A stretch of 64,000 nucleotides of DNA from Campylobacterales bacterium (GCA_050252455.1 JBFWKW010000006.1:926-64925); one strand, 5' to 3'; positions 30,258 through 31,619 are shown, numbered from the stretch's first letter. Notes: generated from the sequence alone by a model not told the origin. Numbers and translations: made by a program.

Positions 30258-31619
30258 ATGAAAAGCGGTCTTTTAAAATTTCTAAAGCCATTGCCAATCT
30301 TACTGATGGCAGGGTCTTTTGCCCACGCTGCCTCGGATGAGCAGTTTTATGCCTCCTCTAACGCTTTTTTTGATGAAGCGAAAGTCTTTCAATATGAGTC
30401 AAAACGACTCATGGACAATACGCACGAGGTTGACAGAGCGCTTATAGATTTTGAGCGTATCCTATCAATCCCCCACAAAACATCTCAAGCCCTAAAAACA
30501 CTCGACAACACGCTAACTACGATAAAGACGGGGCTAACTGCCGCAGAGCAAATACCGCAGACAAAAGAGCAGGCTCAAAAGCTAAAGCAGAGTCTTGAGG
30601 GTGTCCAAAAACCGGTCTCCACCGCCTCAAAAAAGATGGAAACTATCGATAACAAAATCGCCCCGCTACTCAAAGTGGTACATAATGCAGAGCTGACAGC
30701 CTCGACGCTTGCAAACGATGAAGAGACTTTCAGAATCGCCGGAATCGGCTATATCAATACGGTTGGGCTCGTATCAAAATGCGAACACGGGGATATGGTC
30801 ATTTCTATTTTAGACAACTCAAGAAACACATACGGCGATATCGACAGAGAGATGAAAAGAATCAACGACGGCTACGACACCACCAAAAAAATCCCGCAAA
30901 AAGCGATTGATGCAATAAGTAAAGAGATTGACAAAATCAGCCTTCTCGAAAACCCGCTCAACAATCTAAACGCAAAATTGTGGCCGATTTATGAGCCGCT
31001 AAACGAACTAAGAGCCGTTCTAGATAAACGCATAAGCGTCAAAGCGCCTTATATATGCGGTGTAGATACGTGCTATAAAGAGCAAGAGTTTCCGTGCGGC
31101 ACAAAAATGTGCAAGAAAAACTGCGGCATCACGACCTGTCACTACCCTTGCGGTGTCAAAATGTGTAGCCAAAAAGTTCCATATCCTTGCGGCGAAAAAA
31201 CATGCGATATCGAAATATCTATGTCGGTATCAGACGCCATCAAAGGCAGTGATGCAATAGAGAGAAAAATAGAGTCAATACTAAGCTCAACTGTCTATAA
31301 AGCCTTAAAAACAGCGGATCTGGGCTCCATCATAAAAGATTTGGAAAACAGCGCCAACAATCTAGTAAAACCGGTTTTAAACAAACTCAATCTCAACATC
31401 GACGCCAGCGTGCCAAACTTGGATATAAATCTTGATGTCAAAATGATTGACGGGGCGATTGCCGACATAGGCAAATTCGATACTGAAATCGGCAAGCTAA
31501 TCCCTGTGGTCAATATGCAAGGCCCGACATTCAAACCATATTCGATGAAGCTAGAAAAAATCAATATGGACATCAAATCTTTTCTGAACTCGCCGCAATG
31601 TCATGGCGTGAAACATTAA
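30258..31619 (+). CDS. secreted hypothetical protein with helical N-terminal half and CGxxxC repeat cluster
   Basis: 453 aa. Signal peptide 'LLMAGSFAHA/AS'. No family recognised. Cys cluster at aa 267-316. Confidence 0.6.
   Translation: MKSGLLKFLKPLPILLMAGSFAHAASDEQFYASSNAFFDEAKVFQYESKRLMDNTHEVDRALIDFERILSIPHKTSQALKTLDNTLTTIKTGLTAAEQIPQTKEQAQKLKQSLEGVQKPVSTASKKMETIDNKIAPLLKVVHNAELTASTLANDEETFRIAGIGYINTVGLVSKCEHGDMVISILDNSRNTYGDIDREMKRINDGYDTTKKIPQKAIDAISKEIDKISLLENPLNNLNAKLWPIYEPLNELRAVLDKRISVKAPYICGVDTCYKEQEFPCGTKMCKKNCGITTCHYPCGVKMCSQKVPYPCGEKTCDIEISMSVSDAIKGSDAIERKIESILSSTVYKALKTADLGSIIKDLENSANNLVKPVLNKLNLNIDASVPNLDINLDVKMIDGAIADIGKFDTEIGKLIPVVNMQGPTFKPYSMKLEKINMDIKSFLNSPQCHGVKH
31056..31205 (+). 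repeat. intragenic array of five C-G-x3-C units (three are PCGxK(M/T)C)
   Basis: Translation reads ICGVDTC..FPCGTKMC..NCGITTC.YPCGVKMC...YPCGEKTC. The DNA shows repeated ccNtgcggN...tg(c/t) units. Confidence 0.8.

Follow-up and report, generated by a model that had tools for sequence, protein, structure and literature searches.

The window analysed here, a 64,000-nucleotide (nt) stretch of DNA from a Campylobacterales bacterium (GCA_050252455.1 JBFWKW010000006.1:926-64925), contains a gene at positions 30,258 to 31,619 for a secreted protein of 453 amino acids (aa), termed the rod protein (P0001 in our set). The rod protein represents a new protein family with a new structural device, a predicted long β-hairpin that bears ten cysteines and extends from a bundle of long helices, and its link to the stand-alone secretin encoded immediately downstream is plausible. 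The explanation we favour, tentatively and at somewhat less than an even chance, is that the rod protein is a cargo or surface effector of this adjacent motor-less secretin.

The open reading frame (ORF) lies on the plus strand, with the stop codon ending at 31619, and the 453-aa product begins with a clean Sec signal peptide (MKSGLLKFLKPLPILLMAGSFAHA/AS), both as read in the original prediction, an earlier annotation made from the sequence. The mature protein (47.6 kDa, isoelectric point 6.5) has no lipobox and, outside the signal peptide, no hydrophobic segment (maximum 15-residue Kyte-Doolittle mean of 1.27). It contains 12 cysteines, at positions 175, 267, 272, 280, 285, 289, 294, 298, 303, 311, 316 and 448, of which all except C175 and C448 fall within C267-C316. 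These ten make up the five C-G-x3-C units listed earlier (ICGVDTC, PCGTKMC, NCGITTC, PCGVKMC and PCGEKTC) at exactly the same position, nt 31056-31205. AlphaFold2 predicts the structure with a mean predicted local distance difference test score (pLDDT) of 87.8 and a predicted template modelling score (pTM) of 0.67; residues 1–21 score below 50. The helical N-terminal half described in the original prediction corresponds to helices 14–96, 103–172, 179–209 and 214–255 of the model, and the further helical region after the repeats is likewise present at residues 324–443. The features of the gene are as follows.

30258-30329, plus strand: Sec signal peptide, residues 1–24, with cleavage site AHA/AS; homologues have equivalent n-, h- and c-regions.
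30330-31022, plus strand: three long helices predicted by AlphaFold2, residues 25–96, 103–172 and 179–255, the last with a kink at 210–213.
30780-30782, plus strand: C175, in the loop between helices 2 and 3; invariant, and conserved across the superfamily.
31029-31226, plus strand: predicted long β-hairpin, residues 258–323, with strands 258–289 and 292–323 (AlphaFold2 pLDDT 85–91).
31056-31205, plus strand: ten cysteines in five (Y/F)PCGxKxC-type units; proposed rungs 267–316, 272–311, 280–303, 285–298 and 289–294.
31227-31619, plus strand: C-terminal helices, residues 324–443 (G..AIE..IE..LSS), and the stop codon; the most conserved block of the superfamily.
31599-31601, plus strand: C448, which makes up the superfamily cysteine pair with C175.

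In the predicted models the cysteine units form no domain of their own but extend both arms of a hairpin that pre-existed in the superfamily, because the model of a Cys-free relative (P0052; pLDDT 91, pTM 0.78) has the same layout as that of P0001 with a short Cys-free hairpin of two 9-residue strands (261–269 and 279–287). The gaps between successive cysteines are 5,8,5,4,5,4,5,8,5 in P0001 and 5,8,5,N,5,8,5 in four-unit homologues, where N is 9, 10 or 13. The array varies in length only in this central gap, which measures 9, 10 or 13 residues or holds an extra unit, and in three variants whose tips differ in length a Gly-containing turn marks the centre of symmetry. Both features, central-only insertions and deletions and a central Gly turn, would be expected of a hairpin whose arms are constrained and whose tip is free, and they fit a cross-strand disulfide ladder. 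The mirror symmetry of the cysteine positions was considered as proof of a hairpin and rejected; because any periodic two-Cys array is symmetric, only the central restriction of length variation counts as evidence. On extended strands the two cysteines of one unit lie ~17 Å apart and on opposite sides, so that, if the model is right, only cross-strand partners are possible, and the rungs listed above are the disulfide connectivity that we infer. The hairpin is polar, with eight lysines and six acidic residues.

The original prediction had proposed either a disulfide-stapled knot or a metal, Fe-S or redox site for the cysteines. Disulfide stapling is the better of these two chemical ideas, whereas the AlphaFold2 model and the central indels replace the knot with a two-stranded ladder hairpin. 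In principle this proposed ladder resembles the cystine-ladder peptides (theta-defensins, tachyplesin and protegrin), which are cationic and have antiparallel strands with parallel cross-strand disulfides, a connectivity that is only predicted here. Those peptides have 17–18 residues and 2–3 rungs two residues apart, whereas the predicted hairpin of the rod protein has 66 residues and 4–5 proposed rungs at spacings of 5 and 8, and is embedded in a 47-kDa helical protein.

A metal-binding or redox function of the array would place the protein in periplasmic metal or sulfur chemistry and make its link to the secretin incidental. The ten thiols within a stretch of 50 residues, the lack of a detected DsbB or VKOR in the genome, the sulfur-cycle type of Campylobacterota to which the host belongs, and a heavy-metal P-type ATPase or HMA gene a few genes downstream at two relatives' loci all agree with such a role. 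Nevertheless, we regard it as highly improbable. Most of the superfamily keeps the fold and the conserved blocks without cysteines at this place, so the cysteines are an add-on to the hairpin and not its core function. Only C-x4-C spacing occurs, in contrast to the CxC and CxxC motifs of metal-binding Cys-repeat proteins (metallothionein, zinc knuckles and Fe-S proteins); neighbouring rungs are 13–17 Å apart in the predicted hairpin, too far for four-Cys sites; and unrelated secreted proteins carry this repeat as well.

Among 5.8 billion proteins searched, 39 proved to be related to the rod protein, with identities from 93% down to 35%, and all of them are unnamed. The unit consensus, (Y/F)PCGxKxC, is kept across the 39 homologues. 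In 19 aligned homologues, with identities down to 35%, eight of the ten array cysteines (C267, 272, 280, 285, 298, 303, 311 and 316) are invariant or nearly so, which argues from the alignment that the repeated pattern is not due to chance; C175 is invariant and C448 nearly so. Four units are conserved, and the fifth, central unit (NCGITTC) is confined to a subclade. The Cys-type homologues form two subfamilies, one in Campylobacterota (Sulfurospirillum and a Helicobacteraceae metagenome-assembled genome (MAG)) and the other more distant with a longer C-terminal tail. In a homologue of 384 aa (P0003, 88% identical to P0001) the central units are lost and only three units remain. P0003 resembles an in-register deletion between units 2 and 4, with a hybrid FHCGVKMC, and hence the length of the hairpin can apparently change by unit recombination.

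The Cys-type proteins belong to a larger superfamily, itself unnamed. Searched with a profile, 1.84 billion cluster representatives, clustered at 50% identity, gave 240 matches at E<=1e-3 and 120 at E<=1e-10, so that the superfamily is counted as at least 240 clusters. Most matches are 350–460 aa long and align over the N-terminal helical part and the C-terminal part, without cysteines between; in the Cys-free relatives a short segment, SFSVSFPYPxPTWxxPxRIxHYxLxI, replaces the array. The best-conserved block, G..AIE..IE..LS, directly follows the hairpin segment. Three helices of ~100 Å, a hairpin, C-terminal helices and the cysteine pair C175/C448, nearly invariant across the superfamily alignments, are the hallmarks of the group; the rod protein matches the profile over both its N- and C-terminal domains and has the cysteine pair. 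There are also intermediates, P0056 and P0103 among them, that have just one PYPCG...C unit. The (Y/F)PCGxKxC repeat is also found alone or joined to other secreted domains, which from these sequences makes it a movable module. Two proteins of a Zixibacteria MAG (P0149 and P0160; UCC78249.1) join four YPCGVKxC units to a phospholipase A2-like domain (CRDHDRCYD motif, Pfam 2e-09), and P0086, P0148 and P0170 are composed mostly of YPCGVKxC-type units.

The original prediction did not recognise the family, and our searches agree. P0001 gave no match above cut-off against Pfam or NCBIfam, the scans of P0001 and ten relatives yielded only coiled-coil noise, and the same noise was all that PDB sequence searches with two profiles returned. 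Foldseek searches of the PDB with the two confident models (P0001 and P0052) gave no TM-score above 0.33. The only significant fold match of the P0001 model is a predicted structure in BFVD, a putative ORFan of Tupanvirus deep ocean (A0A6N1NW27, 358 aa; Foldseek E 3.6e-10, TM 0.38/0.46). Literature searches found no relevant paper on the rod-protein family, DUF3078, orphan secretins, or motor-less or stand-alone TPR-secretin pairs (TPR, tetratricopeptide repeat).

The rod-protein gene and the secretin gene form one 3.45-kb insert between queD and a cytochrome c gene (cytc), which are on the opposite strand. In three congeners the order is moaA-CHAD-queD-cytc-SemiSWEET, with queD and cytc adjacent and ~20 nt apart. 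The congeners have ...GCTAAAATATTTCAAAACTAAAAAGGAG..ATG between queD and cytc, and the window has GGTAAAATATTTCAAAACTAAAGAGGGAG directly before the cytc ATG. The C-terminus of QueD reads ...ILARIFG* in the window and ...ILAKIFQN* in the congeners, and a short TA[AG][AG]ATATTT repeat flanks the insert. Because the pair sits exactly between queD and cytc and is flanked by a duplicated queD 3´ end, the sequence argues that both genes arrived together as one unit, their own upstream region included. The insert and the second gene are made up of the following elements.

30041-30074, minus strand: left edge of the insert, where the ancestral junction is kept as a duplicate of the former queD 3´ end together with the cytc ribosome-binding site.
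30075-30257, plus strand: non-coding 5´ portion of the insert, where the promoter of the two genes is presumed to lie, with TATAAT near 30148.
31635-33530, plus strand: lipoprotein TPR-secretin of 631 aa, with a lipobox ending at C26 and matches to Pfam Secretin (7e-30) and TPR families.
33527-33550, minus strand: altered queD 3´ end, forming the right edge of the insert, with a 4-nt overlap with the stop of the secretin gene.

A sigma-70 scan of the plus strand of 30075-30257 gave no full promoter-like site, and a promoter is only presumed there. The 15-nt spacing noted in the original prediction is confirmed, with the rod-gene stop ending at 31619 and the secretin ATG at 31635; the gap carries the ribosome-binding site GGGGAAAG and no terminator-like site. 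The insert interrupts the moaA-CHAD-queD-cytc-SemiSWEET operon of the congeners, and transcription of cytc must now start in the divergent intergenic region that the insert created. Searches of 40 relatives within the order detected no rod protein and, apart from a TPR-secretin in G036, no full-length TPR-secretin.

In the adjacent secretin, TPR repeats (approximately residues 40–220) take the place of the N0-N3 domains, and the secretin domain spans residues 395–550. No GspE, GspF, pseudopilin or other motor genes were found around it; the genome has two secretins, and it is the other that adjoins a GspE-type ATPase, on contig C31. As in type II secretion, the candidate cargo has a Sec signal and would fold and be oxidised in the periplasm; as in type II secretion and Slam (type XI) systems, its gene adjoins an outer-membrane channel with a TPR domain, and the cargo gene beside this type of channel varies from genome to genome. 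Unlike type II substrates, which depend on a full type II secretion system (GspC-M and GspD), the rod protein has no GspE/F or pseudopilin genes at its locus. Unlike Slam, the channel is a secretin and not a DUF560 barrel, its TPR_Slam score (19.6 bits) is below the cut-off of 35.2, and the C-terminus of the rod protein is helical instead of an 8-stranded β-barrel. The combination of a TPR lipoprotein element with a secretin pore recalls the RcpA-TadD and PilQ-PilF/Tgl pairs; here, in contrast, TPR and secretin are fused, pilus genes are absent, and the neighbour is a 47-kDa soluble protein and not a pilin.

Secretin adjacency is found in four lineages including the window, at 22–37% identity and in varied gene orders. 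A Cys-type homologue with 37% identity (L004) has a TPR-secretin immediately upstream, two Cys-free relatives (L041 and L053) follow a short secretin 33 nt upstream, and another Cys-free relative (L042) is accompanied by a divergent TPR-secretin. At L004 (8090-9947) the TPR-secretin is called as two overlapping ORFs (162 aa with TPR, 468 aa with secretin), which may reflect a frameshift, a sequencing error or a real split. It could be supposed that one transfer event happened to bring the two genes together and that no function links them, and the majority of family members, which are not beside a secretin, would agree with this. We consider such an accident very unlikely, given that the pair was inserted as one unit with a 15-nt gap and that secretin adjacency arose at least four times, in lineages of 22–37% identity with different gene orders.

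Other members have other partners. Eight Cys-free metagenome loci, which were found with a hand-made degenerate DNA pattern, encode a DUF3078 protein of ~300 aa, presumed to be an outer-membrane protein, whose gene often overlaps the family gene. The Sulfurospirillum-type loci have a conserved lipoprotein of 190–217 aa upstream. Comparison of the 190-aa lipoprotein with the TPR-secretin and with the DUF3078 protein rejected the idea that it is a fragment or relative of either, and it was not found in the source genome. The three partner types (secretin, DUF3078 protein and lipoprotein) are mutually unrelated, with hhalign probabilities below 2%. No Cys-ladder member was seen beside the small DUF3078 partner, which fits a need of the pre-folded, disulfide-bonded hairpin for a wide pore. 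The original prediction had expected conserved co-occurrence with the secretin, and this expectation is half borne out: the pair is one insert here and secretin adjacency recurs in three other distant lineages, but the link is not obligatory, as Sulfurospirillum pairs the family with the lipoprotein and many Cys-free relatives pair it with DUF3078.

The secretin type, in turn, has other neighbours. In G041 and L008 the family gene lies 2 Mb and 5 kb, respectively, from a TPR-secretin whose neighbour is a secreted pentapeptide-repeat protein. Both loci, L034 (G041:C1, 350-3681) and L008 (11196-14791), belong to related genomes and hold a conserved trio of an NMT1/TAXI-like binding protein upstream, the TPR-secretin, and the pentapeptide-repeat protein downstream. 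The TPR-secretin of G036 (27% identical) follows a ricin-B lectin protein, another cargo-like neighbour of this type of secretin; at this locus (L017, G036:C52, 128-3722) the 454-aa lectin protein overlaps the TPR-secretin by 4 nt, and a 132-aa signal-peptide protein comes next. At two DUF3078-type loci (L044, 12075-12485; L047, 9225-9662) a conserved protein of 136–145 aa is encoded on the opposite flank of the family gene and matches no known family.

Cargo, a gate or plug, and an assembly factor had been named as possible roles of the rod protein. A cargo or effector that uses whichever outer-membrane partner travels with it is favoured, while a secretin-specific assembly factor or gate is argued against because the link to the secretin is not obligatory and other outer-membrane partners are used. 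Unlike secretin pilotins and assembly factors, small outer-membrane lipoproteins that always accompany their secretin, the rod protein also has no lipobox and is large (47.6 kDa), and its family is present in Sulfurospirillum genomes in which no TPR-secretin was found. More generally, the rod protein might be a periplasmic structural partner, whose hairpin docks into or under the outer-membrane protein as a plug, gate-keeper, stalk or tether. Nearly every member with enough flanking sequence has an outer-membrane-type neighbour, often translationally coupled; the rod and hairpin have a periplasm-spanning length; the L041 cluster includes an OmpA-family peptidoglycan-binding gene; and the ~300-aa DUF3078 protein seems too small to pass a folded 45-kDa protein. 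Even so, we think such a partner unlikely, as one docking mode is hard to picture for three unrelated partner types, the rare and patchy distribution in mobile cassettes is unlike that of envelope housekeeping parts, and lectin-fused and giant-virus relatives point to a function independent of the bacterial outer membrane. The superfamily is present in 3 of 401 genomes of the phylum; a family that is rare, patchy and carried in small mobile cassettes fits an accessory rather than a housekeeping role.

According to the cargo or effector explanation, the two-gene unit, acquired as a single insert, would produce a Sec-exported soluble protein that folds into an elongated rod in the periplasm. Its three ~100 Å helices and the C-terminal helices are probably clamped by a C175-C448 disulfide, and the β-hairpin would project from the far end of the rod. 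In the Cys clade the hairpin may have grown from ~9 to ~32 residues per strand by duplication of the (Y/F)PCGxKxC unit on both arms, and five cross-strand Cys pairs would turn it into a stiff, Lys-rich ribbon ~10 nm long, a cystine ladder. The folded rod protein would then be handed to the lipid-anchored TPR-secretin, with no motor genes nearby, whose wide pore could let the rod, already folded and disulfide-bonded, through to the cell surface or into the medium. There the protein would work through its hairpin end as an effector that binds or attacks. Secretin passage and an extracellular role are both steps that we infer. We favour an extracellular effector whose function is independent of one particular outer-membrane machine because the protein is soluble, relatives are fused to lectin-like or adhesion domains (DM9, galactose-binding-like, PPC and CARDB), and the only significant structural match is the Tupanvirus ORFan.

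Several observations weigh against this explanation. A spacing of five residues alternates hydrogen-bonded and non-hydrogen-bonded rungs, only the latter of which favour disulfides; the turn assigned by DSSP, at G290-I291, is one residue off the centre of symmetry; and the rungs were proposed from the AlphaFold2 strand assignment and the cysteine spacing, not from the model coordinates. The oxidising pathway is only partly visible, as the genome (99.98% complete) has a DsbA-like gene (C2:5717-6199) and no detected DsbB or VKOR homologue. All eight Sulfurospirillum-type loci, in at least five chromosomal settings, have the lipoprotein, and no full-length TPR-secretin was found in the Sulfurospirillum-type genomes, which hold the closest relatives (61–63% identity). 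The genome of P0033 has its TPR-secretin 2 Mb away and paired with another protein. Export through the secretin is suggested by gene context, and no energy source for it is evident.

Alternatively, the rod protein could be a relative of the ClyA/Hbl/Nhe/XaxA-type α-pore-forming toxins, secreted to perforate target membranes. Its predicted model recalls these toxins, which have a helical tail and a head with a β-tongue, in the elongated helical bundle with a β-hairpin at one end, the order of elements (long helices, hairpin, short helices and returning helices) and a size of 350–480 aa, and lectin fusions are common in pore-forming toxins. Of 53 members, seven have NCBIfam matches below threshold to alpha-xenorhabdolysin A (best E 3.5e-4) and five to MakE (best E 3.7e-5). 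The support is topological, however, and kinship with these toxins is quite unlikely. The XaxA and MakE matches are far below their cut-offs and stand amid dozens of coiled-coil noise matches; no profile of these families (HlyE, Bacillus_HBL, alpha-xenorhabdolysin A, MakA/B/E) matches above cut-off, and P0001 matches none of them. No ClyA-family chain is among the top 50 Foldseek matches of either model (best TM-score 0.33), and the hairpin is polar and Lys-rich instead of hydrophobic, in a protein without any hydrophobic stretch. The chains that do top both PDB fold searches are those of TTYH, and two relatives have weak Prominin matches in Pfam; with TM-scores of at most 0.33 and E of 1.6e-3 to 5e-2, the likeness to the TTYH/prominin extracellular helical domains is probably limited to long helical hairpins.

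A more far-reaching version of the cargo explanation is possible, but doubtful. The unit would be a complete, portable two-gene secretion module of an undescribed kind, in which a motor-less, self-piloting TPR-secretin exports one folded, disulfide-laddered rod; a bacterial family with a giant-virus structural relative would have repeatedly swapped its outer-membrane helper (secretin, DUF3078 protein or lipoprotein), and its members would be surface effectors of a new class, dependent on a partner and new in fold. To our knowledge, secretins have been described only as components of large machines (type II and III secretion, type IV and Tad pili, and phage export). The insert, with two genes in 3.45 kb and well-marked borders, makes it directly testable whether a secretin can export a protein without a motor, and its candidate cargo is well defined, easy to detect and, if it crosses the membrane folded, in need of a wide pore. 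The rod protein also defines a sizeable, unannotated superfamily without a solved structure, and the duplication of a two-Cys unit on both arms of a hairpin is an unusual way to build a long, stiff β-ribbon. Other secreted proteins, such as those with the phospholipase A2-like domain, have the (Y/F)PCGxKxC module appended to them, and the module may therefore serve more generally as a spacer or spike outside the cell.

Three further observations concern individual members of the superfamily. At L030 (4773-6029, Helicobacteraceae bacterium CG2_30_36_10) the family gene is split into ORFs of 253 and 131 aa with the break at the Cys-repeat region, which indicates either a pseudogene or misassembly of the repeat; the locus showed no partner gene. 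Several representatives of 640–1120 aa, on contigs of ~3 kb, have the superfamily's C-terminal module behind acidic low-complexity regions and may be eukaryotic transcripts. The contig Ga0154402_135 carries two superfamily paralogues (L047 and L052).

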